Positions 14,046-32,323 of a stretch of DNA of 64,000 nucleotides are shown here, one piece after another (within the stretch, counting starts at the first letter, position 1; every line of letters begins with the position of its first letter). The position numbers and the translations under genes are program-made. The DNA is taken from positions 269 to 64,268 of the IMG/VR virus record IMGVR_UViG_3300037439_000266; one strand, written 5' to 3'. A model generated the notes under the pieces. It was not told the origin of the DNA and searched no databases. It was given only the letters and a program-made list of their open reading frames with translations. Source of the DNA: a virus (lineage: Duplodnaviria > Caudoviricetes).

Positions 14046-14909
14046 TTACAGCTGCGCCACGTAGGCCGAGGCGCCCAGGAAGAGGCCCGGGAGGGCAACG
14101 CGGCGAACGGAGCTGCAGCTTACGTCGCCCTCGGCCCACTGGTCGCCCGCCAACTCTGCCAACATGTTGGCGTAGCCCCGCATCAGGACCGGGAAGGGGC
14201 TGGGGCGATTGGAGGGGTCCGCGGGGCGGGTGGCGCTGAGGGTGGCGCACAGGCTGCCCGCGACGCCGGAATCGAGGCTGCGAGGATAGACCTGGCCGAC
14301 ACTGCGAAGGAGGGCGTAAGGGGGGAAGCCGAGGTGGGAGGCGACCTGGGCGTTCAGTTCTTCGAGGGCCTGTCGATTCCCATTGAAGAGCTGGAGCTGG
14401 TCGACTCCCGTTCCCACGGCGCCGACGATGCCCCGGAACTTCACCTTTCGGGCGAGGCGGGCAACATCGGCACTGACGGACTCCTCGCCACGCCGGGCCA
14501 GGTCGGCGGCGAGGTGCTCCAAGGAGCGGCGGGTGAGATAGAGTTCGAGATTGTCGTCGAGGTCGCGGCCGGTCATGCCGAGGTGGGCGAGCTGGTGGCC
14601 CGCGCGCTCGTTGAAGATTTCGAGTCGGGCCTTCACGTCGTGGTGGACGATGAGTTCGCGGTCGTGGATGGCGCGAAGATCCTCGATTGGGACGTCCAAG
14701 GCGGCACGGTAGTCCTCGATGGCGACGTCTGGGATGTCGAGGCCGAGGTCGCGCTGAGAGGTCATGACGGCCAGCCAGAGGAGGCGTTCGAGGCGGACCT
14801 TGGTGGGGAAGGCCCAGAGGTTGCGCAGCTCCTGTGAGGCGGCTCGGTTGACGAGGTCGAAGCCCCAGTCGGTCGTGGTGCGGTAGCTGGCGTCGTTGGG
14901 TTCGTTCAC
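14046..14909 (-). CDS. purB: Adenylosuccinate lyase (PurB)-derived protein with internal and C-terminal deletions, about 287 aa
   Basis: Collinear with actinobacterial PurB (HHDVKAR, GMTGRD, GAVGT, SVGQVYPRSLD, GDQWxEGDVSCSxVRRVALP) but lacks RSH and SSAMPHKxN. Confidence 0.85.
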   Translation of the reverse strand: MNEPNDASYRTTTDWGFDLVNRAASQELRNLWAFPTKVRLERLLWLAVMTSQRDLGLDIPDVAIEDYRAALDVPIEDLRAIHDRELIVHHDVKARLEIFNERAGHQLAHLGMTGRDLDDNLELYLTRRSLEHLAADLARRGEESVSADVARLARKVKFRGIVGAVGTGVDQLQLFNGNRQALEELNAQVASHLGFPPYALLRSVGQVYPRSLDSGVAGSLCATLSATRPADPSNRPSPFPVLMRGYANMLAELAGDQWAEGDVSCSSVRRVALPGLFLGASAYVAQL

Positions 14910-15094
14910 GGTTCGGGGCCCTTCAAACGAGTCTGGGCCCCTGATGGGCCCAGTCGTTGAGGCACCGCCCGGACTTGAACCGGGGTACACTCGCTTTGCA
15001 GGCGAGGACATAACCACTCTGTCACGGTGCCAAGGCGGCGGCCCGCGAGCACCCCGGCCATCCTCGGTGAATGATTCGGTTACGGGCCGCCTAG

Positions 15095-15184
15095 CGGAAA
15101 CTAGAGGAGTTGAACCCCCGCCCCCATCGCTGGGGACGTCCCGGTTTTCGAGACCAGGTGCACGCCCTGTGGTGCATAGCTTCC
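15095..15184 (-). tRNA. tRNA-Ser(CGA)
   Basis: Cloverleaf, long variable arm. Confidence 0.85.
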
Positions 15185-15195
15185 ATTGACTTGCG

Positions 15196-15278
15196 CGGAG
15201 AAAGGGGGAATCGAACCCCGGCCCGTTAGGACCACCAGATTAGCAATCCGGCTGCCGCTGCCTATCGGCACATTCTCC
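15196..15278 (-). tRNA. tRNA-Ser(GCT)
   Basis: Cloverleaf, long variable arm. Confidence 0.85.
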
Positions 15279-15407
15279 ATGTAGTCTCGGCACGGGCAGT
15301 TGAATCGTGTCCGCTCCGCCCGAGACACCCCGCCTGCTAGCGGACGAGGTCCAGTTGAGCACCCGCCCCCGCGTCCGGGGTTGGGCTCGAAGGTCGGTAT
15401 CACCTTG

Positions 15408-15488
15408 TTGCCACGGTGAGATTCGAACTCACTTAGCCTGGGCGACCGCTTTACAGGCGGCCCGACCTCTCCTGCGGTCAGCGTGGCA
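15408..15488 (-). tRNA. tRNA-Tyr(GTA)
   Basis: Cloverleaf, CTGTAAA loop. Confidence 0.8.
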
Positions 15489-15499
15489 CCAGCTCTGGG

Positions 15500-15913
15500 T
15501 TAGTTACCCTCCCCAGAAGTTTCGAGGTTGACGTCCGGGATGAGCACCTCGGGACGGATCATGATCTCGTGGTGGAAGGGGTCGACCTCGAGCGCGTCGA
15601 GCTGCTCGGCCAGGTACGTGGAGTTGTCGGAGAGGCCGTAGAAGTGCTTGAGGTAAGCGCCCGCGTCGTCACCCTCGGCGACCTTGCAGGTGATTTCGAG
15701 CTGGTTGCCCTCGTCCACGAGATTGCAGAAGCCCTCGATGGTGAGGACGGCCTGACCGGTGATCCCGTTGATGAACGTGATCTCACGGTAGACCTTGAAG
15801 TTGTCGGCGGCGGTGGAGAGGTTGTCCGAGGCGGTGGTGGCCTCGTCGGAGCAGGCGGTGAGAGCCGTTCCGGCCAGGGCCGCGACCAGGATGAGCTTCG
15901 CTACGTTTCGCAT
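15500..15913 (-). CDS. Phage lipoprotein, 137 aa, embedded in the tRNA array
   Basis: Lipobox LTA-C; ASDNLSxAADNF...ITFINGIT motif typical of a phage lipoprotein family. Confidence 0.8.
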   Translation of the reverse strand: MRNVAKLILVAALAGTALTACSDEATTASDNLSTAADNFKVYREITFINGITGQAVLTIEGFCNLVDEGNQLEITCKVAEGDDAGAYLKHFYGLSDNSTYLAEQLDALEVDPFHHEIMIRPEVLIPDVNLETSGEGN

Positions 15914-15940
15914 TGAGTCTTCCTTCTGTCGATTCGGGGG

Positions 15941-16029
15941 TGTAGGCAGTCCGGAATCGAACCGGTCCCCCTTGCAGGGGCGCAGCTTTCGCTGACTGGA
16001 CGCACCAATACCCAGCACTCCGTGCCTAC
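15941..16029 (-). ncRNA. Aberrant tRNA-like RNA (acceptor and T arm, extended D arm, GAAA hairpin, CTGCAAG hairpin)
   Basis: GTAGGCA/TGCCTAC stem; CCGG-TTCGATT-CCGG T arm. Confidence 0.65.
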
Positions 16030-16030
16030 G

Positions 16031-16105
16031 TAGTCCGTGCGGGACTTGAACCCGCAAATGCCCAGATTGAAAGTCTGGTGGCTCTACCTATTCGCCCAAC
16101 GGACC
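16031..16105 (-). tRNA. tRNA-Glu(TTC)
   Basis: Cloverleaf. Confidence 0.9.
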
Positions 16106-16210
16106 TTAAACACCCGCGAGTGGCGCTCGATGGCAGTCTAACGCCAACGCAGGTGCGACCTCTGCCAAGGTCTTGAAGCCAATTCAGGTTTACAAGCCTG
16201 ACCGCTCCCG

Positions 16211-16283
16211 CTCCCCGGGGATGGCTCGAACATCCAACCTCGCGGTCCAGAGCCGCGCGTTCTTCCAGTTGAACTACCGGGGA
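16211..16283 (-). tRNA. tRNA-Gln(CTG)
   Basis: Cloverleaf. Confidence 0.9.
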
Positions 16284-16295
16284 CTAACTGTTGCG

Positions 16296-16368
16296 CTGTC
16301 CATCGAGGGGTCGAACCTCGCACCTCCCGAGCCAAAATCGGGCGTTCTTCCAACTGAACTAATGGACA
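16296..16368 (-). tRNA. tRNA-Gln(TTG)
   Basis: Cloverleaf. Confidence 0.9.
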
Positions 16369-16489
16369 AGGACCTCGGGGCGGGACCGATGGCTGTCAGT
16401 TCCGGGATCCGAGGTTCGACCCCCAGCCAGGGGTCTGGGGCCGACAGCGGGGTTAAGGGCGTGGTGTCCCCGGCCTGCTGCGGACCTTG

Positions 16490-16562
16490 CTGCCTGGGGA
16501 GGGCTCGAACCTCCGACCTCGCGGTTAACAACCGCTCGCTCTGCCAACTGAGCTACCAGACA
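16490..16562 (-). tRNA. tRNA-Asn(GTT)
   Basis: Cloverleaf. Confidence 0.9.
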
Positions 16563-16773
16563 CTGTGTAGGGGCCCCGGCCCACTCCTGCCACAGGCAGG
16601 TCGGGACCCCGTTAGACCGCGTTTCTCGTCCAGGTGCGTGGTCCATGCCTGGTGTTCGCAGGTAGGCAGTGTTGCCCAGGTCCCTCTTCAACGGGTGGCC
16701 ACCCTCCAAGGTTCGGGCCTCTGACGGCTCCTGCGGCTCACGACACCTTCGGTACCAAGGTGCCTATCTTGCG

Positions 16774-16846
16774 TACACCGAGCGGGATTCGAACCCGCGT
16801 TCTCCTCATTGAGAGTGAGGTGAGATTACCGCTACTCTACCGGTGC
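16774..16846 (-). tRNA. tRNA-Glu(CTC)
   Basis: Cloverleaf. Confidence 0.9.
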
Positions 16847-16999
16847 TCGGACCGGCCGGTGCAGACGACCGGTCCCCGGGCCTCCGCTTCCAACAGAACG
16901 CCCGGCTATGAAGGCCGCCTGCGGAATCAGGTGGGCCGTTGTTGTTCGAGCTGGTCTATCTGAAGGCCACGGTGGCTCCGTGTCGATGCGCCTTCATTG

Positions 17000-17071
17000 C
17001 AGGGCAGGAGGGGTTCGAACCCCCGACCTTCGGTTTTGGAGACCGCTGCTCTTCCACTGAGCTACTACCCA
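17000..17071 (-). tRNA. tRNA-Trp(CCA)
   Basis: Cloverleaf. Confidence 0.9.
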
Positions 17072-17245
17072 TCGTATTTTGTTAGTGCGACCCCGGGCCG
17101 TTTTCAGCCGACCCGGGGTCGCTCCCCCATCCCTCAACCCCTGAAGGAAGTCGGGCGGGGCGGTGCAAGGTCCTGACGCTCGGCAAGCGGAAATCTCAGA
17201 GAGATCTCGCTCGGCATCCCGTGTCGGTGTCAATGACCGCCCCTG

Positions 17246-17318
17246 TGGCCCTCCAGGGACTCGAACCCCGGACCCTCTGATCCGTAATCAGATGCTCTAT
17301 CCTCTGAGCTAGAGAGCC
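17246..17318 (-). tRNA. tRNA-Arg(ACG)
   Basis: Cloverleaf. Confidence 0.9.
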
Positions 17319-18442: not shown

Positions 18443-20221
18443 TTGGCTCAACTGATGATGCCTGACTTCGACGGGTCCGAGACGCCCGAAGAGGCGGCCC
18501 TGGCCTACGCCGAGGCGGGCTGGTACGTGATCCCGGTGGACCGGGAGTTCGAGACGGGCAAGAACCCGGGCTCGATCCTTGGCAAGGACTGGCCGACCCA
18601 ATCGAGTCGGGACCCCGACCAGATCCGCGACTGGTTCTCGGGGGCCTGGCGCGAGCGCAACATCGCCCTCCACGTCGGCCGATCGGGCGCCGTGGCGTTC
18701 GACCACGACCAAGGTGCCCTGCCTGACCCACTGGTCGACGCCCTGGTCGCCTACGCCCCGCCCCAGCAGTTCACTCCCTCCGGCGGGGAGCACTACATCT
18801 TTGCCCAGCCGCCGGGCCGGTCAATCGGCAACTCCGGTGGGAAGCTCGGCTCGGAGTGGGGGGAGGTCCGGGGCCACAACGGCGTCATCGTCGTCTACCC
18901 CTCAGCGCTGCCCGAGAAGGGTAAGTACGAATGGTCCGAGGGGACCCTGCTTGCCCCCCGCCTCGCGGTCCCGGTACTGCCCACCTCGGTGGCGGAGCTG
19001 CTGCCGGACGCGGGCCTGCGGGACCGATCGGCCACGGCAGACCAGCGGCAGGAATTCCTGGACCGATACACCGAGGGCACTCGGCCCGAGATGCTGCGGC
19101 CCGTCCTGGACTACTACGAGAAGAAGGCGCACGCGGGTTCGCGGCACGAGACCCTGGTGCACTGCGCGTGCTGGGCCATGCGGGAGGCGCGGGCGGGCTT
19201 CTACGCCGCCCGGACGGCCTGGGAGGCCCTCTGGCAGACGTTCCTGGACACCGCCGGGCAGGAGCGCTTCATCGACTCCGAGTTCGACGGGATCATGGAC
19301 TGGGCGATCGGGCAGGCTCGGGCGCTGTCGGACACCCAGCTCGCCCAGGCCGTGGCCGAGTACCAGATCGCCGTCACCGATGAGGAGGTCGCCGAGCTGG
19401 AGGCGAAGCTGCTCGACACCGAGGCCCTGGATGACCTGCCCGACCCCCGCTGGCTGGTGGCGGGCTGGCTCGAGATGGATACGATCGCCCGCATGACCGG
19501 AAAGTCCCGCCACGGCAAATCGTTCGTGGCGCTGGACCTCGCCGCTGCAATCGGGGGCGGTTTGGACTGGCACGGCTCCAAGGTGCTGCAGGGGGAGGTC
19601 ATCTACATGGCCGCCGAGGGCGCGTACGGCATGAAGAAGCGCGTCCGGGCCTGGGAGACCACCTACGGACGCCGCATGCGGGGCGTCTACCTGCTGCCGG
19701 AGGCGCTGCAGGTCAGGTCCCGAGACTGGGACGTCCTGTGTGAGCTGGTGAAGAGGCGCAAACCCGCGCTGATCATCCTCGACACCCAGGCGCGCGTCAC
19801 CGTGGGCCTGGACGAGAACGACGCCAGCGAGATGGGCCATCTGGTCAACCAGATGGAGAAGATGCGCCAGGTCTCGGGGGCCTGCGTGATGGCGGTCCAC
19901 CACCTCGGTCACAACGGGCGCGAGGGCCGAGGCTCCACGGCCGTCATCGGCGCGCTCACCTCGGAGATCCTGGTGGCGCGTGAGGACTCGAATTCCGAGT
20001 CGGACGGCGGCAGCCCCGGGGAGGAAGGCCCCCGCGTCATTCGCGTGGAGTGCATGAAGCAGAAGAATGCCGAGGACGGCGAGGTCCGGCTGTTCGAGAT
20101 GCGCCAGGTCGAACTGGGCCACGACGTCGACGGGAACCCCGTCACCTCGGCGGTCATCCGGGAGACCATTCAACTTGAGCAGGTGCTGCGCAACTGGGGA
20201 CAACACTACGTGCCCGGCTAG
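18443..20221 (+). CDS. Bifunctional primase-polymerase fused to AAA (RepA-like) helicase
   Basis: A..YA..GW.VIP, NI, FDHD, GGEHY motifs; Walker A GKSRHGKS; IILDT. Confidence 0.9.
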   Translation: MAQLMMPDFDGSETPEEAALAYAEAGWYVIPVDREFETGKNPGSILGKDWPTQSSRDPDQIRDWFSGAWRERNIALHVGRSGAVAFDHDQGALPDPLVDALVAYAPPQQFTPSGGEHYIFAQPPGRSIGNSGGKLGSEWGEVRGHNGVIVVYPSALPEKGKYEWSEGTLLAPRLAVPVLPTSVAELLPDAGLRDRSATADQRQEFLDRYTEGTRPEMLRPVLDYYEKKAHAGSRHETLVHCACWAMREARAGFYAARTAWEALWQTFLDTAGQERFIDSEFDGIMDWAIGQARALSDTQLAQAVAEYQIAVTDEEVAELEAKLLDTEALDDLPDPRWLVAGWLEMDTIARMTGKSRHGKSFVALDLAAAIGGGLDWHGSKVLQGEVIYMAAEGAYGMKKRVRAWETTYGRRMRGVYLLPEALQVRSRDWDVLCELVKRRKPALIILDTQARVTVGLDENDASEMGHLVNQMEKMRQVSGACVMAVHHLGHNGREGRGSTAVIGALTSEILVAREDSNSESDGGSPGEEGPRVIRVECMKQKNAEDGEVRLFEMRQVELGHDVDGNPVTSAVIRETIQLEQVLRNWGQHYVPG

Positions 20222-20618: not shown

Positions 20619-20690
20619 CGCGGAATAGCTTAACGGCAGAGCACCAGCCTCATAAGCTGGAAAGTCTCGGTTCAAATCCGAGTTCCGCTA
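20619..20690 (+). tRNA. tRNA-Met/Ile2(CAT)
   Basis: Cloverleaf; C1 mismatched, but no 3 G-C initiator anticodon stem. Confidence 0.85.
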
Positions 20691-20821
20691 CGAAACGATG
20701 CAATACCTAAGTAGTCAGACTGAGTGGGCCCCGGCGAGGGTCGTGTCAGACATTCGAACGGTGCGCTAGTTTCGGTGCCCCCCGGCGCAAGTGCTGAGCA
20801 CGCGAGGCCGGGGGGACCCAA

Positions 20822-20898
20822 GCTCGCTTAGCCTAGAGGCCGAGGGCGTCCCCCTGTCGAGGGGAAGAACACGGGTTCGAATCCCGTAGCGAGTGCCA
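20822..20898 (+). tRNA. tRNA-Asp(GTC), CCA encoded
   Basis: Cloverleaf. Confidence 0.9.
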
Positions 20899-20969
20899 TT
20901 GTGTCGGGCCCCAAGCGTCTGCAGCGTTGTTGGAGCCTCCCGGGAGGTGCGCCCGGCACGGTGAAATAG

Positions 20970-21044
20970 CGGGATGTAGCCAAGCTTGGTAAGGCGCTTG
21001 CTTTGGGAGCAAGAGACGCGGGGGTTCAAATCCTCCCATCCCGA
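20970..21044 (+). tRNA. tRNA-Pro(TGG)
   Basis: Cloverleaf. Confidence 0.9.
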
Positions 21045-21046
21045 CT

Positions 21047-21118
21047 GTGGCCGTAGCTCAACGGAAGAGCGCGCGGATGTGGCCCGCGTGGTTGTGGGTT
21101 CAACTCCCATCGGTCACC
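21047..21118 (+). tRNA. tRNA-His(GTG)
   Basis: Cloverleaf. Confidence 0.9.
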
Positions 21119-21120
21119 CC

Positions 21121-21193
21121 GCCTTGGTAGCTCAACGGATAGAGCGCCCGGTTCCGGACCGGGAGGCTGCAGGTTCGAATCCTGCCTGGGGCA
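21121..21193 (+). tRNA. tRNA-Arg(CCG)
   Basis: Cloverleaf. Confidence 0.9.
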
Positions 21194-21202
21194 CGTGAGA
21201 GT

Positions 21203-21273
21203 GGGCCGGTAGCTTAATTGGTAAAGCAGGCCGGGGACGGCTATTTTGTGCGGGTTCGAGTCCCGCCCGGAAG
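21203..21273 (+). ncRNA. tRNA-like RNA with GGGA tetraloop in place of the anticodon loop
   Basis: Canonical D and T arms; GGCCG-GGGA-CGGCT; acceptor stem only 4 bp. Confidence 0.65.
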
Positions 21274-21303
21274 TGCACACCCACTCCCACACTAACTTAA
21301 CAA

Positions 21304-21377
21304 GCCCGGGTGGCCCAATTGGCAGAGGCGTCCGCTTCAGGAGCGGAAAGTTGGGGGTTCGAGTCCCTCTTCGGGTA
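21304..21377 (+). tRNA. tRNA-Leu(CAG), short variable arm
   Basis: Cloverleaf. Confidence 0.85.
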
Positions 21378-21445
21378 CGGGGCACGCTGGGGTGCCCTTG
21401 CAGCGATGTCGGTCATGAACGGCAGAGTGTAAAACCCCAGCACAA

Positions 21446-21518
21446 GCTCGTCTAGTCCAATGGCAGAGACACCGGCCTCAAAAACCGGCAAGTCCCGGTT
21501 CGAGTCCGGGGGCGAGTA
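21446..21518 (+). tRNA. tRNA-Leu(CAA), short variable arm
   Basis: Cloverleaf. Confidence 0.85.
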
Positions 21519-21580
21519 CTAGCCAGGTAGTTCTAGATAAGCCTGGCCGAATGGAGATGGGCGTCGCGCAAGCGCCCCCT

Positions 21581-21652
21581 CAGCACGTAGCTCAGATGGT
21601 AGAGCGCCGCCCTCGCGGGTGGAGGTCAGGGGTTCAAATCCTGCTCGTGCAC
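21581..21652 (+). tRNA. Degenerate tRNA-Ala(CGC)-like (6-nt anticodon loop, weak T and acceptor stems)
   Basis: D arm canonical; CCGCC-CTCGCG-GGTGG. Confidence 0.55.
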
Positions 21653-21654
21653 CC

Positions 21655-21726
21655 GCCGCAGTCGGTTAATTGGCAAACTCACTGACTTCCAATCAGTTAC
21701 TGGGGGTTCGAATCCCCTCTGCGGCT
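21655..21726 (+). tRNA. tRNA-Gly(TCC)
   Basis: Cloverleaf. Confidence 0.85.
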
Positions 21727-21731
21727 CTGAA

Positions 21732-21790
21732 GGGACGTCATCTGGACAGCAGGTGCGCGCACCGGGGAGGCTCGAAACCTCCGGCGTCCC
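21732..21790 (+). ncRNA. Short tRNA-like RNA lacking an anticodon arm
   Basis: GGGACGT/GCGTCCC acceptor stem; GGAGG-..TCGAAA-CCTCC T-like arm. Confidence 0.5.
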
Positions 21791-21796
21791 TTCTCC

Positions 21797-21869
21797 GCCC
21801 TTGTAGCTCAGTGGTCAGAGCAGCTGTTTAGTAATCAGCTGGTCCGGGGTTCGAATCCTCGCGGGGGCT
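21797..21869 (+). tRNA. tRNA-Thr(AGT)
   Basis: Cloverleaf, TTAGTAA loop. Confidence 0.8.
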
Positions 21870-21870
21870 C

Positions 21871-21942
21871 GGCTTGTTAGCTCAGTTGGAAGAGTACCGG
21901 AGTGAAGTCCCGGGAGCGGCGGTTCGAATCCGTCACGAGCCA
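21871..21942 (+). tRNA. tRNA-Phe(GAA), atypical 31-39/32-38 positions
   Basis: Cloverleaf. Confidence 0.8.
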
Positions 21943-21943
21943 C

Positions 21944-22016
21944 GCGTCGTTAGCTCAGTTGGTAGAGCTTCGTCCTCTTAAGTCGAAGGTCCTAGGTTCG
22001 ATCCCTAGACGGCGCA
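21944..22016 (+). tRNA. tRNA-Lys(CTT)
   Basis: Cloverleaf. Confidence 0.9.
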
Positions 22017-22017
22017 C

Positions 22018-22090
22018 GCCTCGCTAGCTCAGTGGTAAGAGCAGCTTCCTTTTAAGTAGCGGGTCCGGGGTTCGACTCCCTGGCGGGGCA
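22018..22090 (+). tRNA. tRNA-Lys(TTT)
   Basis: Cloverleaf. Confidence 0.9.
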
Positions 22091-22091
22091 C

Positions 22092-22164
22092 AGCTGACTA
22101 GCTCAACGGTTAGAGTACCACTCTGATAAGGTGGGGGTTCTCGGTTCGAATCCGAGGTTAGCTA
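22092..22164 (+). tRNA. tRNA-Ile(GAT)
   Basis: Cloverleaf. Confidence 0.9.
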
Positions 22165-22165
22165 C

Positions 22166-22238
22166 GCACCGTTAGCTCAGTGGAACGAGCGGCTGTCTTA
22201 CAAGCAGCGGGTCGGGGGTTCGACTCCTCCACGGTGTA
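22166..22238 (+). tRNA. tRNA-Val(TAC)
   Basis: Cloverleaf. Confidence 0.9.
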
Positions 22239-22322
22239 CAAGGTTCCAGAGGACGTAGTCGCTAAGTCGGTTGGCGCGGGGTCAACAAACGCGGGCGTGG
22301 CGCACCGCCTGGAACCGAGCAA

Positions 22323-22396
22323 GGGCTGTTAGCTCCAATTGGTAGAGCGTCTGTTTTGCATACAGAGGGTTGTCGGTTCGAATCCGTCACGGTCCA
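22323..22396 (+). tRNA. tRNA-Ala(TGC)
   Basis: Cloverleaf, G3:U70. Confidence 0.9.
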
Positions 22397-22457
22397 CTCG
22401 GGGTGTTCGCCGAGCTGTCCTCTTTAGGGTCTTACCGCCTGAATCAGCTCGGATCTA

Positions 22458-22530
22458 GGGCGCGTAGCTCAGCGGATAGAGCTGGACTTTCCTAAAGTCT
22501 GCGGCGAGGGTTCGAATCCTTCCGCGCCCA
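22458..22530 (+). tRNA. tRNA-Arg(CCT)
   Basis: Cloverleaf. Confidence 0.9.
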
Positions 22531-22553
22531 CGGGTCCATTCGGGGGTCCTTCA

Positions 22554-25104: not shown

Positions 25105-25470
25105 ATGGACCCACTGACCGAAATGATGATCCTGGACACGCTGCCCGTGGCGCGCGCGGTGCTGGGACTGCCCGACGACCTCGCAGAGCTGGCCGTCCGG
25201 CACGCCTACACCTGCCCTGAAAGGCCGTGCCTGGTGGAGCGCTACCTCACCAGCAAGATGCTGGAGGCCGCTGCCGAGAGCAACGGCGTTCCGATCGAGC
25301 AGGTCACCGACCTGACCCTGGCCGTCTCAAAGGGACTGGCCGACACCCTCCGAATCCGGAAGGAGCAGCAGGGGGAGCTTGCCCCCGGCGAGGCTGAGGC
25401 GGCCTACCGCCAGAGCGCCGAGGCGCTGCACGCCACGATGGAACTCCTGCGGGGAGGCTCCCGTGACTAG
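25105..25470 (+). CDS. Hypothetical protein, 121 aa
   Basis: RBS gaagga; codon bias. Confidence 0.7.
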   Translation: MDPLTEMMILDTLPVARAVLGLPDDLAELAVRHAYTCPERPCLVERYLTSKMLEAAAESNGVPIEQVTDLTLAVSKGLADTLRIRKEQQGELAPGEAEAAYRQSAEALHATMELLRGGSRD

Positions 25471-27481
25471 GCTCAATGAACTTCCCCCGGGACATCCTGT
25501 CACCGTGGACATCGAGGGCAGCGGCCTCCATCCCGACGACGGGGCCACGGTCTCCGTGGTCAGCTTCGCCTACCGTGACCCGACGGACGGCTCCATGGTC
25601 TCCCAGGCGGTGCCGTTCGACCAGGGCCTGCATTCCCCGCTGGGGGAGAAGGTCCTGACGGCCGCAACGCAACGCCGCCTCAAGAAGTGGCCCGAGTGGG
25701 CTCTCGCCGAGGTGGCCCCCAACCGCCCGCCGGAGGACTTCGACCGCCTCCTGCAGCTCTTGGAACCGATGGACCTGGTCTTCCACAACGCCAAGTTCGA
25801 CCTGATGTTCCTGGAGGCCGGTCTGCGGGGGCACCCCGGCCGGAACCTGCAGCCCCGTCTCGCCTGGGACACTATGGTTGCGCAGTGGGTCCGGGAGCCG
25901 CAGATGCCGAAGGGTCTCAAGCCCTCGGCGGTCCGGCTGGAGTTGACCGACTCCGGCGCGGAGGACGCCGAGGCCGAGGCTCTCAAGCCGTGGCTCGGCC
26001 CCAAGTCCGGCAAGAACTCCGACCCTCGCTTCGACCTGGTGCCGTGGTCCGTGATGGAGCCCTACGCCCGAGTCGACGCCGAGCTGACCCTGCTGCTGTG
26101 GGAGTACCAGAACGACCGCCTCGACCCCGAGACCGACGTCGGGTTCTGGAAGTACTTCGATGAGGAGATGGAGTTCATCCACGTCCTGCGCAATATGGAG
26201 CGCCGGGGCGTGGGATTCGACGCCGAAGGCTGCCGGGCCGCCGCCGAGGTGCTGCGCGCCGAGCAGGCCGCCTCGGCGAAGCTCCTGCCTTTCAAGGGCA
26301 GCACGGGCGGCCCCACTCCCAACGCGGCCCGCAAATTCTTCTTCCAAGGCCCCCCGCAGTTCCAGCCGTCCTACGACACCGGCGGCAACGAGATCGAGCT
26401 GGAGGTCCCTGTTGAGGAGCCGGTGCGGCCCGGAACCGAAGACTTCCGGGGGATTCCGCCGTTCCCGGACAAGCTCACCGCCGGGGGCCAGCCCCAGGTG
26501 GATGAAGAGACGGTCACCCGGCTCGTCGCCCAGGGCATTCCGTGGGCGGAGGAGTATGCCAACCACGAAGGCCTGAAGTCGGCCCTGTCGAAGTGGTACG
26601 ACCCGTGGCCCCTGGCCTGCGGGCCGGACGGTCGCCTGCGGACCTCCTACAGGCAGGGCGGCACGATCTCGGGGCGGCTCGCCGTGGGCCGGGTGCAGCT
26701 GCAGGCGATTCCGCACGACTACCTGATGCCCTCGAAGTCGGTGCCCTCGGTCCGAAACTTCTTCCAGCCCCGGCCCGGGTTCCAGCTCTGGGAGTTCGAC
26801 GTCTCGCAGGCCGAGATCCGGCTGGCCACGGCCCTGGCCCGCTGCCGTCCGATGCTGGAGGGCATCGAGCGCGGGGACGACTCCCACTCGATCGCTTGCA
26901 AGCTCATGTTCGGGATCGACGAGTCGGATCCGCTCTGGGACCAGCGACGCCAGATCGCCAAGCGGTGCAACCTCGGAATCCTGTACGGGGCCGGGGCCAA
27001 GGTGATTCGGGAGCAGCTGCTGAAGTTCGCCAACATGGACGTCAGCCTCAAGCAGGTGCGCGAGTGGATTAACGACTGGAAACAGGCGTTCTCCCCGTTC
27101 ACCGTGGCGCTGGAGCGCGCGCAGGACCAGGCCGAACGGATGGGCTACGTGCGGCTGTACAACGGGCGGCAGCGCTGGTTCTCGGACTATGAGCCCTCCC
27201 ACAAGGCGTTCAATCAGATCGTGCAGGGGTCGCTGGCGGAGATCATGAAGACCGCGATGATCGATATCGATCGGCTCTTTCCGGGCGAGTTGCTCCTGCA
27301 GATTCACGACAGCGTTGTGCTGGAGGTTCCGCAGGAACTGGCCCAGGAGCGCGGGCAGCAGGTCTGCGACATCCTGCGGGACCGCTTCGAGCGGGCCGTC
27401 TGGACCCCGTGGGAGACGGGCGGGGAGCCGATCCGCGTCCCGTTCGCCTCGGACGCCAAGGAATGGGTGCGTGCCGCATGA
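25463..27481 (+). CDS. polA: Family A DNA polymerase with 3'-5' exonuclease
   Basis: ExoI DIE, ExoII HNAKFD, ExoIII YARVD; motifs A (DVSQAEIR), B (RQIAKRCNLGILYG), C (IHDS). Confidence 0.95.
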   Translation: MTRLNELPPGHPVTVDIEGSGLHPDDGATVSVVSFAYRDPTDGSMVSQAVPFDQGLHSPLGEKVLTAATQRRLKKWPEWALAEVAPNRPPEDFDRLLQLLEPMDLVFHNAKFDLMFLEAGLRGHPGRNLQPRLAWDTMVAQWVREPQMPKGLKPSAVRLELTDSGAEDAEAEALKPWLGPKSGKNSDPRFDLVPWSVMEPYARVDAELTLLLWEYQNDRLDPETDVGFWKYFDEEMEFIHVLRNMERRGVGFDAEGCRAAAEVLRAEQAASAKLLPFKGSTGGPTPNAARKFFFQGPPQFQPSYDTGGNEIELEVPVEEPVRPGTEDFRGIPPFPDKLTAGGQPQVDEETVTRLVAQGIPWAEEYANHEGLKSALSKWYDPWPLACGPDGRLRTSYRQGGTISGRLAVGRVQLQAIPHDYLMPSKSVPSVRNFFQPRPGFQLWEFDVSQAEIRLATALARCRPMLEGIERGDDSHSIACKLMFGIDESDPLWDQRRQIAKRCNLGILYGAGAKVIREQLLKFANMDVSLKQVREWINDWKQAFSPFTVALERAQDQAERMGYVRLYNGRQRWFSDYEPSHKAFNQIVQGSLAEIMKTAMIDIDRLFPGELLLQIHDSVVLEVPQELAQERGQQVCDILRDRFERAVWTPWETGGEPIRVPFASDAKEWVRAA

Positions 27482-27843
27482 GTGAAGAGTTGGCATGGCC
27501 CAACCTGGTCCTGATTGACCTGCGATCCGCCAAGGCGCTGTCCGAGGATGAGTCGCCCGACGCCGACGAGATTTACGCGTCCGCCATCGACGTGCCGGAC
27601 CTCCTCACCGAGGTCAAACGCCTGCGGCAGGAGAACCTGAACCTCCGTGAGATGATCGAGGCAGGGGGCGATCGAGCCCGACGTCTGGAAGGGGCCAACA
27701 CCAAACTGACCAGCGACGCCAAGTGGCTGTTCGGGGAGTTCGGATGGGAGCATTGGCGCGAATGCGACATTCCCGACGAAGAGGATGGCGGATGCGGGTC
27801 CTGCGCCGCCCTAAAGAAAATGAGGCCTGAGTATGGAAATTGA
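27478..27843 (+). CDS. Hypothetical protein, 121 aa
   Basis: ATGA coupling. Confidence 0.7.
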   Translation: MSEELAWPNLVLIDLRSAKALSEDESPDADEIYASAIDVPDLLTEVKRLRQENLNLREMIEAGGDRARRLEGANTKLTSDAKWLFGEFGWEHWRECDIPDEEDGGCGSCAALKKMRPEYGN

Positions 27844-28042
27844 CCTGGAGCGCATCAAGGCCGACATCGCGGACGAGTTCGACATGCCGGACTGGGTCAA
27901 GGCGCACGTTGCGGACCTGATTCTCGAAGTTGAGCGGCTGACTCAGCGCGAGCACAAGCTCAACGCTCTGGAGACGTACGGCGTCGACAATTGGGAGGGC
28001 TACGAGCCCGCCATGAATGACGAAGAGGGGGAGTTCGATTGA
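27833..28042 (+). CDS. Hypothetical protein, 69 aa (LNALETYGVDNWEGY motif)
   Basis: Common phage microprotein motif. Confidence 0.75.
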   Translation: MEIDLERIKADIADEFDMPDWVKAHVADLILEVERLTQREHKLNALETYGVDNWEGYEPAMNDEEGEFD

Positions 28043-28514: not shown

Positions 28515-29033
28515 GTGGACAAGAGATGCTCTAAGTGCCAAGAAATTAAGCCGCTCGACGCTTTCGGGCTGGACAAACGAGCCGCGACGGGCCGCCAGTC
28601 GCAGTGCAGGGCCTGTCAGTACGCCTACGATCTCGAACGATATCGTAACAACCCGGACCGCCAGGCCAAGGCTCAGCACCGAAATCGGGAAGGAGCCAAG
28701 CGCCGCTGGCGTGCTGGCGGCCCTGATAAGGCCCGAGAATACCGAACCAAGCTGCGAGCTGACGCCATCTCCGCCTATGGCGGGGTCTGCCAGTGCTGCG
28801 GCGAGAGCTGGGAGCCGTTCCTTCAAATAGACCACATAAAGGGGAACGGCAACCAACACCGCAAAGAGATCGGACAGTCCAACATTTACCAATGGCTAAG
28901 GTCTAATGATTACCCCCCGGGGTTTCAAGTCCTGTGCGCCAACTGCAACTCCGTCAAGGAGCGCGGGCAGTGCCCGCCCGAACACAAGAGTGGAGGTGAT
29001 TTGACAAGTGAAAAACTCTATGAAAATGGATGA
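28515..29033 (+). CDS. HNH-type endonuclease 1
   Basis: CSKC...CRAC; CQCCGE...IDH...LCANCN. Confidence 0.85.
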   Translation: MDKRCSKCQEIKPLDAFGLDKRAATGRQSQCRACQYAYDLERYRNNPDRQAKAQHRNREGAKRRWRAGGPDKAREYRTKLRADAISAYGGVCQCCGESWEPFLQIDHIKGNGNQHRKEIGQSNIYQWLRSNDYPPGFQVLCANCNSVKERGQCPPEHKSGGDLTSEKLYENG

Positions 29034-29668
29034 CCCCCGAGACTGGCCGCAGCACGTGGTGGCGATCGACCCGGGCGCGCCCCATCACGGCGTGGTGATG
29101 GCCAAGGTGACCCCCGAGGGTTGCCTGCTCACGGGAGCCTGGGAGCTGAGCGGGGAGGACGAGCTTTACGACCGGTTCTCCCTCTGGGCTCGCAGCGGCG
29201 GCCTCGCCAACCTGGTGCTGGAAGAGTATCGCTTGTATTTATCCCTGGATGGCGCGGCAGCAGGGGTTCTCGGACTTCCCGGTGCCGCAAGCGATCGGCG
29301 CGCTGCGCTATATCGCCAGGCAGCACAACATCCCGGTGACGATGCAGAAGGCGGCCGATAAGAAGATCGCCCGCAAGCTGGCCGAGGTGCGCGGGGTGCC
29401 GATGGCGCTCCGGTCGCTGGGGTCGGGGAAGGGAGCGTACAAGGGTCCCGACTTCGACGCGAAGTGGCTCCGGGACTTGTACGGCGTGAAATCGTCGCAG
29501 CACGTCCGCGATGCCTTGGCGCACCTGGTACATTGGGTCTGGACGAACAAAGAGGCCCCGGCGCTGCGGTACACAGGAGCCCCACACGCCCCACCCACCC
29601 CAGAGAGAACAGCGCTGGGCTGGGTGTTACGATTGTCAGGTACGCACACAACGCAGGGAAGGAGCCCG
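29008..29668 (+). pseudogene. RuvC-like Holliday junction resolvase, frameshifted at about 29235-29243, C-half in frame with HNH 2
   Basis: AIDPG, VLEEYRLY|(Y)PW, QAIGALRY, QHVRDALAH motifs split across two frames. Confidence 0.75.
29035..29062 (+). repeat. 28-bp direct repeat, copy 2
   Basis: Identical to 28475-28502. Confidence 0.9.
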
Positions 29669-30103
29669 ATGGACTGTATTAACGGACACAAGAACCCCGA
29701 ACGCTACGCCAACGGCACCTGCAAGCAGTGCACCAAGGACAAAGCTGAGGAGTGGAGGCGCGACCCCGTCAACTGGGAGAAGCGCCGGGAAACAGAGCGA
29801 CTCCGGGCCCAGCGCCAGCGTCAATCCGACCGAGAAGCAGCCCTGACCAAATACGGCCCCGGCTGCCGCTGCTGTGGCGAATCGATCGAGACCTTCCTTA
29901 CGATTGACCACGTAGACGGGGGCGGGGCCGCACATCGAAAAGAGATTTTCGGCCCCAACTACTCGGGACGTCGTCCGGCGGGTAGCCGCACCTACCGCTG
30001 GCTGCGCCTTAACAACTACCCCTCAGGATTTCAGGTCCTGTGCTTCAACTGCAATTATGCCAAGCACGCTCTCGGAGCGTGTCCTCACCAGAAGGGCAAG
30101 TAA
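29669..30103 (+). CDS. HNH-type endonuclease 2 (same family as HNH 1)
   Basis: RBS aaggag; CRCCGE...IDH...LCFNCN. Confidence 0.85.
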   Translation: MDCINGHKNPERYANGTCKQCTKDKAEEWRRDPVNWEKRRETERLRAQRQRQSDREAALTKYGPGCRCCGESIETFLTIDHVDGGGAAHRKEIFGPNYSGRRPAGSRTYRWLRLNNYPSGFQVLCFNCNYAKHALGACPHQKGK

Positions 30104-30104
30104 G

Positions 30105-31286
30105 ATGGAACGTGGCAGGATCTCCGTCGTAGTCGGAGGGCAATTCGGGTCCGAGGGTAAGGGGGCCGTTGCCGCCTGGATCGGACGAACGGCAGTCAAT
30201 GAGGGTCGAGAGGTGTTGGGGGTGCGCGTGGGGGGGCCGAATGCTGGCCATACTACGTACGGCCGCTGCCCCTACGAGATCGATAAGCAGGACAACCCTC
30301 AAGCGAGCTGCGCCAAGTGCAACGAGTTCGGACACCCGTGGGCGCTGCGCCAGGTGCCGGTCGTGGCAGTCACGAACCCCGAGGCGGGGCTGGTCATCGC
30401 GGCCGGTTCCGAGGTGGACCCCGAGGTCCTGGCCACCGAACTGGCCCTGCTCGACCGGGCCGGTTACCGGGCCACGGAGCGCTTGGTCCTGGACGGCAAC
30501 GCGACCCTCCTGATGGAGTCGCACCGTTCGGCCGAGGCCGGGAAGGAGCTGCAGAAGCGGCTCGGCTCCACGGCCAAGGGAATCGGCGGGGCCCGGGTCG
30601 ACCGGCTCTGGCGCGAGGCCCGCACCGTGGCCCTCCACGACGGTTTCCCGCCAGAGCTCTACGGGGACCCGGACATCTCGATGGACACGGCCGACCTGAT
30701 GGAGCGTGTCCTGGCCGAGGGCGGCCACGTCATCATCGAGGGGACCCAGGGCTACGGGCTCGGTCTCCACACCGAGTACTACCCCTTCACGACCTCGGGT
30801 GACTGCCGCGCCATCGACTTCCTGGCGCAGGCCGGGCTCAGCCCTTGGCTCCCCGAAACAGAACTCAAGGTCGTCGTCTGCTTCCGGCCGTTCCCGATCC
30901 GCGTCGCCGGGAACTCCGGGCCGATGGGGGTCGAGACCACCTGGGACAACCTGGGGCTCCCGCAGGAGCTGACCACGGTGACCCAGAAGGTCCGTCGCGT
31001 CGCCGAGTGGGACCCCGCCCTGGTCGAGACCGCAATCCGCGCCAACGGCGGCCTCGGCCCCCACATGGTCCTGGCCCTCACCATGGCCGACCACGTCATC
31101 CCGGAGCTGAAAGGCATGTCCCGGTTCATCGAGGTCGGGGCCGACAATGAGGCGGCCATCCAGAAGTGGGTCGAATCCTCGGGGCTGTCCCCCGAGGTTC
31201 GGGGGGCGCTGTGGGGCCAACTGGGCTACGGCCGCACCCTGCTGGGAACCGGGCCGACTACGATGTTGGGAGACCTTCCCGAATAA
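30105..31286 (+). CDS. purZ: Diaminopurine synthetase, PurZ/PurZ0-type (adenylosuccinate synthetase homolog)
   Basis: GQFGSEGKG (Ser for PurA catalytic Asp), GPNAGHT, EGTQG, TTVT..RR, TMAD. Confidence 0.85.
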   Translation: MERGRISVVVGGQFGSEGKGAVAAWIGRTAVNEGREVLGVRVGGPNAGHTTYGRCPYEIDKQDNPQASCAKCNEFGHPWALRQVPVVAVTNPEAGLVIAAGSEVDPEVLATELALLDRAGYRATERLVLDGNATLLMESHRSAEAGKELQKRLGSTAKGIGGARVDRLWREARTVALHDGFPPELYGDPDISMDTADLMERVLAEGGHVIIEGTQGYGLGLHTEYYPFTTSGDCRAIDFLAQAGLSPWLPETELKVVVCFRPFPIRVAGNSGPMGVETTWDNLGLPQELTTVTQKVRRVAEWDPALVETAIRANGGLGPHMVLALTMADHVIPELKGMSRFIEVGADNEAAIQKWVESSGLSPEVRGALWGQLGYGRTLLGTGPTTMLGDLPE

Positions 31287-31391
31287 AGCTCGGGGCTAGA
31301 GGCTATGGCAATAGCCCCCCGGCCCTGATAATTTGAAGACGGGCAAGGGAGGCCCCATCGCGGGGCCTCCCCGAGCAAGAAGGAGCTAGCC

Positions 31392-31733
31392 GTGGCGGAC
31401 AAGACCGACAAGATCGGGGACCTGCGACCCAACTTCCACCGTTGGTGGGCCGAGATGGTCGACAAGGAAGCCCCTACGATTCAGGCCAAGGCTCAGGAGT
31501 ACGGATCGAACTCGCTGGCTCAGATGGGCCACATGTTCGCCCGAGCCCAGGGACGAGGCGTCACCGAGGCCGAGGCCCTGGAGATCGGCAGCTTCATCTA
31601 CGCCTACGGCAAGCTCCAGCGCGTGGGGGACGCTCTTCTCCACGGCAAACTCCCGTCCACCGACACCTGGACGGACTTGGCCGTGTACTCGACGATGTCC
31701 CTCTACATTCGCGAAACCGGCCAGTGGCCCTAA
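31392..31733 (+). CDS. All-alpha nucleotide-modification-associated protein (DUF1599/MazG-like)
   Basis: K..EYG...K..R...DT..DL..Y pattern; lies between purZ and dut. Confidence 0.6.
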   Translation: MADKTDKIGDLRPNFHRWWAEMVDKEAPTIQAKAQEYGSNSLAQMGHMFARAQGRGVTEAEALEIGSFIYAYGKLQRVGDALLHGKLPSTDTWTDLAVYSTMSLYIRETGQWP

Positions 31734-31753: not shown

Positions 31754-32323
31754 ATGAGCAATCCGATTGAGATCCCCGAATACCTGAAGGACCCCGACCC
31801 GCACGAGTTCCGCGAGGTCCGAATCGACCTGGACGGGTTCGCCGTTCCGGACCCGCCCTTCACCGGGAAGCTGCGCTACGAGGCCAGCGACCCCGACTTC
31901 GAGCTGAAGCAGGGCTACCCCGGCGACGCCGGGTTCGACCTCGCCGCCAGCGAGGACTGGACCGTGGACGCCCACGACCACGGCCTGATCCCGACCGGGG
32001 TCAAGCTCGAAATCCCCGAGGGGCTGTTCGTCTGGATCGTGGCCCGATCCTCCACGATGAAGAACTGGGGATTCATGGTCCTGCCGGGCATCATCGACAC
32101 CGGATTCCGAGGTGAGCTGTACGCCTCGGTCTACAACACCCGAGGCTACTCGGTTTCGGTGAAGAAGGGCGACCGCATCGCGCAGGTCGTGCCGCTGCCG
32201 AACGTCGCGCCTCTCCTGGAGCCCCAGCGCGTCGACTTCGTGGACGCCGACACCTCCCGAGGTGCGGCCGGTTTCGGCTCGACCGGGGTCGGGGGCAGCG
32301 GCTGCCTGGCCGGTTGCCCCTAG
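31754..32323 (+). CDS. dut: Trimeric dUTPase-family pyrophosphatase
   Basis: AGFDL, ARSS, GIIDTGFRGE, GDRIAQ, RG..GFGSTG. Confidence 0.9.
   Translation: MSNPIEIPEYLKDPDPHEFREVRIDLDGFAVPDPPFTGKLRYEASDPDFELKQGYPGDAGFDLAASEDWTVDAHDHGLIPTGVKLEIPEGLFVWIVARSSTMKNWGFMVLPGIIDTGFRGELYASVYNTRGYSVSVKKGDRIAQVVPLPNVAPLLEPQRVDFVDADTSRGAAGFGSTGVGGSGCLAGCP

Follow-up and report, generated by a model that had tools for sequence, protein, structure and literature searches.

The open reading frame (ORF) at positions 30105-31286 of an uncultured virus genome belongs, judged by its sequence, to the known PurZ0 family, of which it is a new, uncultured member; the trait has already been described in cultured actinophages. 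The ORF, purZ0, is part of a stretch of 64,000 nucleotides, the window, which comprises the IMG/VR record IMGVR_UViG_3300037439_000266 (64,268 bp; CheckV completeness 100%) minus its first 268 bases. We consider it likely that this phage possesses a PurZ0-type synthase with GTP as donor and, jointly with it, a genome containing 2-aminoadenine (Z). An earlier note, made from the bare sequence, had suggested a PurZ0-type synthetase, a partial or complete replacement of A by Z and, as a consequence, resistance to restriction. The first of these points has been borne out by a curated PurZ model, by the ranking of solved relatives and by phylogeny.

The ORF product matches Pfam PF00709 (4.8e-27) and PHROG phrog_1211, the PurZ family (2.5e-74). 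With NCBIfam model NF038379 (succino-amino-deoxyadenylate synthase PurZ) it scores 311.2 bits (6.4e-93) and passes the cut-off of 300. For comparison, the PurZ0 of Gordonia phage Archimedes scores 325 bits and VP5 PurZ 396 bits. The window protein remains well under the cut-off of every PurA equivalog model. When PDB entries are ranked by sequence, 7VF6, the Archimedes PurZ0, is first (7.4e-74), followed by Pyrococcus horikoshii PurA (1e-31), phiVC8 PurZ (4e-25) and S-2L PurZ (6e-19). Matches this strong are well outside chance expectation. An AlphaFold2 model of the product was built (predicted local distance difference test, pLDDT, 84.2; predicted template modelling score, pTM, 0.88). Searched with Foldseek, it again has 7VF6 in first place (1.3e-30; template modelling (TM) scores 0.74/0.80), then P. 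horikoshii PurA (5K7X) and then the PurZ structures; the Foldseek probability is 1.00 to PurA, PurZ and PurZ0 structures.

Among phage proteins the best matches are from the Streptomyces phages Keanu, Galactica, Spocter and Hiyaa with 52-55% identity. Wayne-like Arthrobacter phages follow at about 46%, Gordonia and Microbacterium phages at 42-44%, and Vibrio, Acinetobacter and other PurZ at 25-30%. In a phylogeny of 64 rows (IQ-TREE quick search, LG+C20, one long outgroup) the window protein is positioned inside a 39-row clade which holds all five reference PurZ0, i.e., Keanu, Wayne, Johann, Archimedes and Ghobes (SH-like approximate likelihood-ratio test, SH-aLRT, 99). Within this clade, the subclade to which it belongs has 13 rows, made up of metagenomic proteins (SH-aLRT 100). 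The PurZ are placed in a clade of their own (SH-aLRT 100), and bacterial PurZ-like proteins are also outside the PurZ0 clade. The placement in the PurZ0 branch, and not with PurA or the ATP-type PurZ, is thus supported by sequence, predicted structure and phylogeny. The nearest cultured PurZ0 is about 54% identical and at least 13 metagenomic relatives reach 62-78%, i.e., the branch is well populated in nature.

The diagnostic residues were located in a MAFFT alignment of the window protein with E. coli PurA, five PurZ0 from cultured phages, three PurZ and three metagenomic relatives (Table 1). The earlier note had read a Ser at the position of PurA Asp13 and TMAD at the position of PurA TKLD. 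Both readings are exact: Ser16 of GSEGKG lies on Asp13 of GDEGKG, and LTMADHV lies over E. coli LTKLDVL column for column. Phe14, Ser16 and TTVT match the dGMP-side signatures. TTVT is present in 119 of the 119 closest metagenomic relatives and in every PurZ and PurZ0 reference. For PurZ, specific substrate-contacting residues have been described, with S23 of S-2L and a T273-T276 tip which is conserved in PurZ (PMC8342488). In phiVC8 PurZ roles were assigned to F12 and S14, and an S14D exchange abolishes selectivity (bioRxiv 10.1101/2025.10.22.683976).

A second set of residues concerns the phosphate donor. TMAD aligns with SMAD of 7VF6 and with TMLD of P. horikoshii PurA; the three aligned PurZ have NFxN. 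The donor pocket of the window protein (TMAD, GTGP) matches that of 7VF6 (SMAD, GTGP) and that of the GTP-bound archaeal PurA 5K7X (TMLD). The donor-pocket Asp is kept in all 119 closest metagenomic relatives. The proposal that retention of this Asp distinguishes PurZ0 from PurZ agrees with every aligned sequence, Asp on one side and Asn or Gln on the other. It is also consistent with the structure-based explanation of how adenine or guanine is selected, in which S-2L PurZ has Gln in this column (PMC8342488).

Could the ORF encode an ordinary PurA, i.e., an auxiliary metabolic gene for adenylosuccinate from IMP and, consequently, for more AMP? The window protein keeps the PurA fold, the catalytic His, the P-loop Lys and a GTP-type pocket. 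However, a Ser replaces the catalytic Asp13 and the aspartate loop is TTVT instead of GATT. Further, the PurA equivalog models are far from satisfied, the PurZ model is passed, and the protein resides in the PurZ0 clade. We regard an ordinary PurA as very improbable.

The Ser is present and in the right column, but by itself it is not specific for Z phages. A pattern scan of species-representative genomes uncovered short PurA-like genes with a Ser P-loop in at least 569 bacterial and archaeal species (loci L011-L090). Since so many prokaryotes carry Ser-type PurZ-like genes on their chromosomes, the assignment to a Z phage rests on clade and genomic context, not on the Ser. The chromosomal proteins have Ser at the Asp13 position, the donor-pocket Asp and a length of about 345 aa. 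They differ by an NH[LV]D donor motif, by only 33-40% identity and by a position outside the phage PurZ0 clade.

The window protein can be compared with the other known systems. With the PurZ0 of cultured phages it shares the clade, 41-54% identity, the Ser P-loop, TTVT, (S/T)MxD with its Asp, and the gene order PolA ... purZ0, small gene, dut. It differs in the P-loop, which is GSEGKG, as in 51 of the 119 relatives, and not GSEAKG. It further differs from the crystallised enzyme by a Cys insertion of the kind present in Keanu-type enzymes, and the window is devoid of DmtZ and DUF5664. With the ATP- or dATP-using PurZ from phiVC8 (6FM1), S-2L (7ODX) and Acinetobacter phage SH-Ab 15497 the Ser P-loop, TTVT and the expected reaction from dGMP and Asp to dSMP (N6-succino-2-amino-2'-deoxyadenylate) are common. 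Yet identity is 25-30%, the clade is separate, the PurZ pocket consists of NFxN/Q and GFGP as opposed to TMAD and GTGP, and the PurZ helpers DatZ and MazZ are absent in the window. The short archaeal PurA from P. horikoshii (5K7X), the second-best structural match, shares its short architecture and its TMxD GTP pocket with the window protein, but keeps the catalytic Asp (GDEGKG), has GTVT and uses IMP as a substrate.

The Cys-bearing insertion contains two or three Cys and falls into the loop which closes over the substrates in PurA. At least two Cys are found in the insertion of 118 of the 119 closest relatives; Streptomyces phage Keanu has such an insertion too. It is absent in Archimedes, Ghobes, Wayne, Johann, the PurZ, E. 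coli PurA and the bacterial PurZ-like proteins. The insertion could be a metal or a disulfide site.

The ATG of purZ0 is located one base past the stop codon (TAA) of the HNH gene upstream of it, and a GAAGGG stretch resembling a ribosome-binding site (RBS) is 11-16 nt upstream. An alternative in-frame ATG at 30057 was rejected. It would overlap the HNH gene, and a start there is at odds with the N-termini of homologues. The codon-position GC of 30057-31286 (0.69/0.49/0.87) is a typical coding pattern for the window genome.

The genomic context carries the second part of the argument. In the plus-strand replication module a PrimPol-helicase, a tRNA array, a PD-(D/E)XK nuclease, AAA_24, DUF669, a family A polymerase, a T7 gp5.9-like protein, two HNH genes, purZ0, a gene for a 113-aa protein and a dUTPase homologue follow each other. 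This order follows that of Wayne, Archimedes, Ghobes, Johann and Keanu; the segment PolA, HNH, purZ0, small gene, dut is common to the window, Wayne, Archimedes and Keanu. Both HNH genes match the Wayne HNH gp49, which itself is directly 5' of purZ0, and Wayne gp45 has the architecture of the PrimPol-helicase.

The family A polymerase is predicted to be a Wayne-type, DpoZ-like enzyme; Wayne-type DpoZ (NF038381) has been named DpoZ-1 (PMC12884076). The top 40 of its 2769 phage matches are all from PurZ0 phages, with E values of 1e-62 to 1e-90 and a coverage of >90%. In a 60-row sample of this ranking, polymerases from non-PurZ phages match the C-terminal half only, at 8e-24 or weaker.

The dUTPase homologue directs to the same phages. 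It shares the full set of five dUTPase motifs with the DutZ from Ghobes and Wayne, which have been assayed, and its best phage matches are mostly from PurZ0 phages. Ghobes and Wayne DutZ convert dATP and dGTP into monophosphates by hydrolysis, and dutZ is found in 98 of 98 surveyed PurZ0 genomes, the phages being treated as Z-DNA phages (PMC12884076). We compiled 80 PurZ0 loci from IMG/VR (L091-L170) by an alignment-based scan; a scan with the single protein gave no close relative. A Dut homologue is located downstream of purZ0 in about 68 of the 70 loci whose downstream sequence extends over 2.5 kb or more. Two peculiarities of the window homologue were noted in comparison with five aligned DutZ. 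Its end (32291-32323) is an extra Gly/Cys tail, VGGSGCLAGCP, absent from the five, and in motif III a Phe is in place of their Tyr.

The DpoZ-like polymerase, the DutZ-like dUTPase homologue and a remnant of PurB all lend support to Z in the virion DNA and to the restriction resistance expected from it. From family membership, diagnostic residues and conserved context we infer the substrates, the GTP preference and the Z content, and a pathway can be proposed. By analogy to the characterised PurZ0 and PurZ enzymes, the PurZ0-type synthase would join dGMP and aspartate to dSMP, most probably with GTP as the phosphate donor. Host PurB and kinases would convert dSMP to dZTP. The DutZ-like enzyme would break down dATP and provide dGMP from dGTP. 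Finally, the DpoZ-like polymerase would build DNA in which 2-aminoadenine replaces most or all A.

A number of observations weigh against this interpretation. The first concern the donor. The use of GTP by PurZ0 was reportedly established by Tong et al. (2023). A preprint paraphrases Tong et al. in agreement with this and describes ATP use as a later transition made by PurZ (bioRxiv 10.1101/2025.10.22.683976). By contrast, one sentence in PMC12884076 gives the donors of PurZ0 and PurZ as ATP and GTP 'respectively', i.e., in reverse order. This order probably is a slip, because the donor-pocket residues and the preprint paraphrase imply the opposite. Further, the Cys insertion near the catalytic His is missing from the crystallised PurZ0, and no assay of an insertion-bearing member was found in the accessible literature. 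Thus, one might propose that an enzyme of the PurZ0 clade uses ATP or dATP, or both donors, instead of GTP. Few PurZ0 have had their donor preference measured, and none of those found in the accessible literature bears the insertion. Against this possibility, the guanine pocket of GTP-bound 5K7X and of 7VF6 is reproduced in the window protein by Asp329 and GTGP, and the ATP-type PurZ has Asn or Gln in place of the Asp and Phe in place of the Met (PMC8342488). The preprint's view of ATP use as a later step taken by PurZ also speaks against it. An ATP- or dATP-dependent enzyme appears quite unlikely, and GTP is retained as the probable donor.

Other observations concern the extent of replacement. 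The best NCBIfam model of the polymerase is DpoZ, NF038381, but with 289 bits the polymerase does not reach the cut-off of 350. Wayne polymerase scores 1145, Archimedes 415 and Keanu 184. Keanu and Archimedes have full-length PurB-like genes; that of the window is shortened. The match of its product to Mycobacterium tuberculosis PurB skips chain residues of about 137-177 and 246-292 and stops at 338 of 479, the C-terminal third being gone. TIGR00928 gives 98 bits against a cut-off of 326. From these gaps the PurB-like gene looks non-catalytic. A DmtZ gene is absent: PF05014 has zero matches in the genome with an E limit of 10, tblastn with Wayne, Keanu and Archimedes DmtZ yields zero matches, and the Dut protein stands alone. 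The models PF13023, PF04447, PF03819 and PF18909 also have no match in the genome, which thus has neither an HD-type dATPase (DatZ) nor a MazG/DUF550 dGTPase (MazZ) beside purZ0, and no DUF5664. Because DmtZ, DUF5664, DatZ and MazZ are all lacking, the exclusion of dATP would depend on DutZ and the polymerase alone.

Restriction-type palindromes add to this point in both directions. GCCGGC, CCGCGG, GGCGCC, CTCGAG, GAGCTC and AGGCCT are classic sites of actinomycete restriction enzymes, and palindromes which consist of G and C only are beyond protection by Z. In the window the ratio of observed to expected hexamer palindromes is 0.64 for GC-only and 0.78 for A/T-containing ones, i.e., the GC-only sites are more avoided. 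GCCGGC is not observed at all (42 expected), and the other five are depleted 3- to 9-fold. The direction is the same in Wayne (0.28 vs 0.66) and in the median of 44 viral PurZ0 loci (0.50 vs 0.73). It is reversed in the non-Z Actinoplanes phage phiAsp2 (GC-only 0.53, A/T-containing 0.39). On the other hand, A/T-containing sites are still avoided in the window: CTCGAG occurs 4 times with 36 expected, and GAGCTC 8 times with 39 expected. The latter avoidance weighs little, because Wayne displays the same. With one non-Z control and differing hosts, the pattern is a weak hint for Z and not a test.

The same data can be read differently. Z nucleotides might be produced in a phage with a part-substituted genome, or the pathway might mainly reshape nucleotide pools, e.g., to starve the host or a defence system. 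The missing DmtZ, DUF5664, DatZ and MazZ, a polymerase under the curated DpoZ cut-off and the depleted A/T-containing palindromes would all be compatible with this, and the bacterial PurZ-like genes show that the chemistry is usable outside of genome replacement. Other findings speak against it. DmtZ is lacking as well in about ten further viral PurZ0 loci whose flanks are adequate, so the DmtZ-less layout of the window recurs; in the published survey DmtZ is missing in 13 of 98 PurZ0 genomes (PMC12884076). The Keanu polymerase scores even lower with the DpoZ model, Wayne has the same palindrome pattern, and the window protein is part of the phage clade and not of the bacterial one. We consider partial substitution or pool reshaping unlikely and favour a genome with Z in place of most or all A.

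The gene directly downstream of purZ0 deserves separate attention. It codes for a 113-aa protein whose predicted fold is, with good confidence, a four-helix bundle. Members of this family are found directly 3' of purZ0 in 66 of the 80 viral loci; in the other 14, all Wayne-like, DUF5664 occupies this position. Archimedes gp51, Ghobes gp51, Johann gp55 and the C-terminus of Keanu gp66 belong to the family. Moreover, in 11 of 12 long PurZ0 homologues (522-562 aa) from metagenomic protein clusters the 113-aa domain is fused to the C-terminus of PurZ0 (clusters P0032, P0035, P0045, P0065, P0069, P0074, P0077, P0094, P0099, P0112 and P0120). Invariant positions in the family are K33, E36-YGSNSL, QGR55, K74, R77, D80 and D91. 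The spacer between the two genes (31287-31391) contains a GC hairpin with 10 perfectly matched bp (GGGAGGCCCC ... GGGGCCTCCC) that lacks a T-run; the strong AAGGAG RBS of the 113-aa gene comes after it.

For the 113-aa protein no family match was obtained in Pfam, PHROG or NCBIfam and no sequence match in the PDB. With Foldseek the top matches are MazG-like DR2231 at an E value of 1.8 only. VIA-align gives Z scores of about 6 to many helical bundles, which is not significant. Few of these matches span all four helices; among them are the MazG-like 2A3Q and 2YXH and S-2L MazZ (7ODY), likewise not significant; such weak MazG-like resemblances are the only hints. No relation was detected by hhalign with the Wayne DUF5664, with MazZ-2 from Ochrobactrum phage or with a 16-row DUF5664 alignment. 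A protein atlas offered a DUF1599 lead only, in 14% of the members of one cluster, and the window genome has no match to the models of DUF1599 and DUF6378. No description of the family was found in the accessible literature.

We read the 113-aa protein as a PurZ0 partner; a role as a nucleotide diphosphatase is a guess from its position. Tentatively, it may be a core component of the PurZ0 pathway which the accessible literature does not describe, perhaps a dGTP/dATP diphosphatase which feeds PurZ0, or a subunit which binds and tunes PurZ0. If so, the window phage, with neither DmtZ nor DUF5664, would represent a minimal PurZ0 Z-cluster of purZ0, the 113-aa gene and dutZ. The combination of purZ0, a small helical gene and dutZ is a compact candidate set for Z-DNA production in high-GC hosts. 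In any case, the protein is an unstudied conserved partner which deserves to be tested.

Table 1. Coordinates of purZ0, its sequence motifs and other features in the window.
Feature	Position	Strand	Basis and remarks
purZ0, candidate GTP-type N6-succino-2-amino-2'-deoxyadenylate synthase, 393 aa	30105-31286	+	NF038379, 7VF6, AlphaFold2/Foldseek, tree
P-loop GSEGKG, residues 15-20	30147-30164	+	Ser16 at E. coli PurA Asp13 column; Phe14 precedes (QFGSEGKG)
Cys-bearing insertion of about 20 residues (GRCPYE...CAKCNEF), residues 53-75	30261-30329	+	between catalytic His49 and GHPW
TTVT aspartate-loop motif, residues 290-293	30972-30983	+	PurZ-type signature; E. coli PurA has GATT
TMAD donor-pocket base-specificity motif, residues 326-329	31080-31091	+	Asp329 at E. 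coli Asp333 column
C-terminal GTGP	31245-31256	+	E. coli has STGP; PurZ has GFGP or GWGD
113-aa four-helix protein, conserved PurZ0 neighbour	31392-31733	+	AAGGAG RBS, then GTG start; AlphaFold2 pLDDT 89.6
DutZ-like trimeric dUTPase-fold dNTP diphosphatase (predicted), 189 aa	31754-32323	+	Pfam dUTPase 4.2e-26
Family A DNA polymerase, Wayne-type DpoZ-like; start codon uncertain	25379-27481	+	Pfam DNA_pol_A 1.2e-43
Two paralogous HNH endonuclease genes	28515-29033, 29249-30103	+	PHROG 2255 at 2.8e-23 and 9.6e-11
69-aa T7 gp5.9-like protein, between polymerase and HNH genes	27833-28042	+	PF25708 (T7 gp5.9 RecBCD inhibitor family), 4.4e-12
Primase-polymerase/helicase	18443-20221	+	Pfam Prim-Pol 3.5e-24, AAA_25 2.8e-34
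Shortened PurB-like protein (adenylosuccinate lyase remnant)	14046-15017	-	M. tuberculosis PurB 9OO0, 1.2e-49, three pieces
28 tRNA genes, two arrays	14959-17318 and 20619-22531	- and +	flank the start of the replication module

The origin of the genome can be narrowed down. Its G+C content is 67%. The nearest matches of the large terminase are from Actinoplanes phage phiAsp2 (46%) and Streptomyces phage TurkishDelight (44%), and on this basis we assign the window to an actinophage. The virion module resembles that of phiAsp2, which has no PurZ and a polymerase different from that of the window. The Z module is thus placed on a virion backbone whose nearest cultured relative carries ordinary replication genes, in keeping with the idea, already published, that Z modules pass from one phage lineage to another. 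With this phage, the known PurZ0 phages gain an uncultured, phiAsp2-like lineage which has 28 tRNA genes. One tRNA call in the arrays has an odd two-base anticodon.

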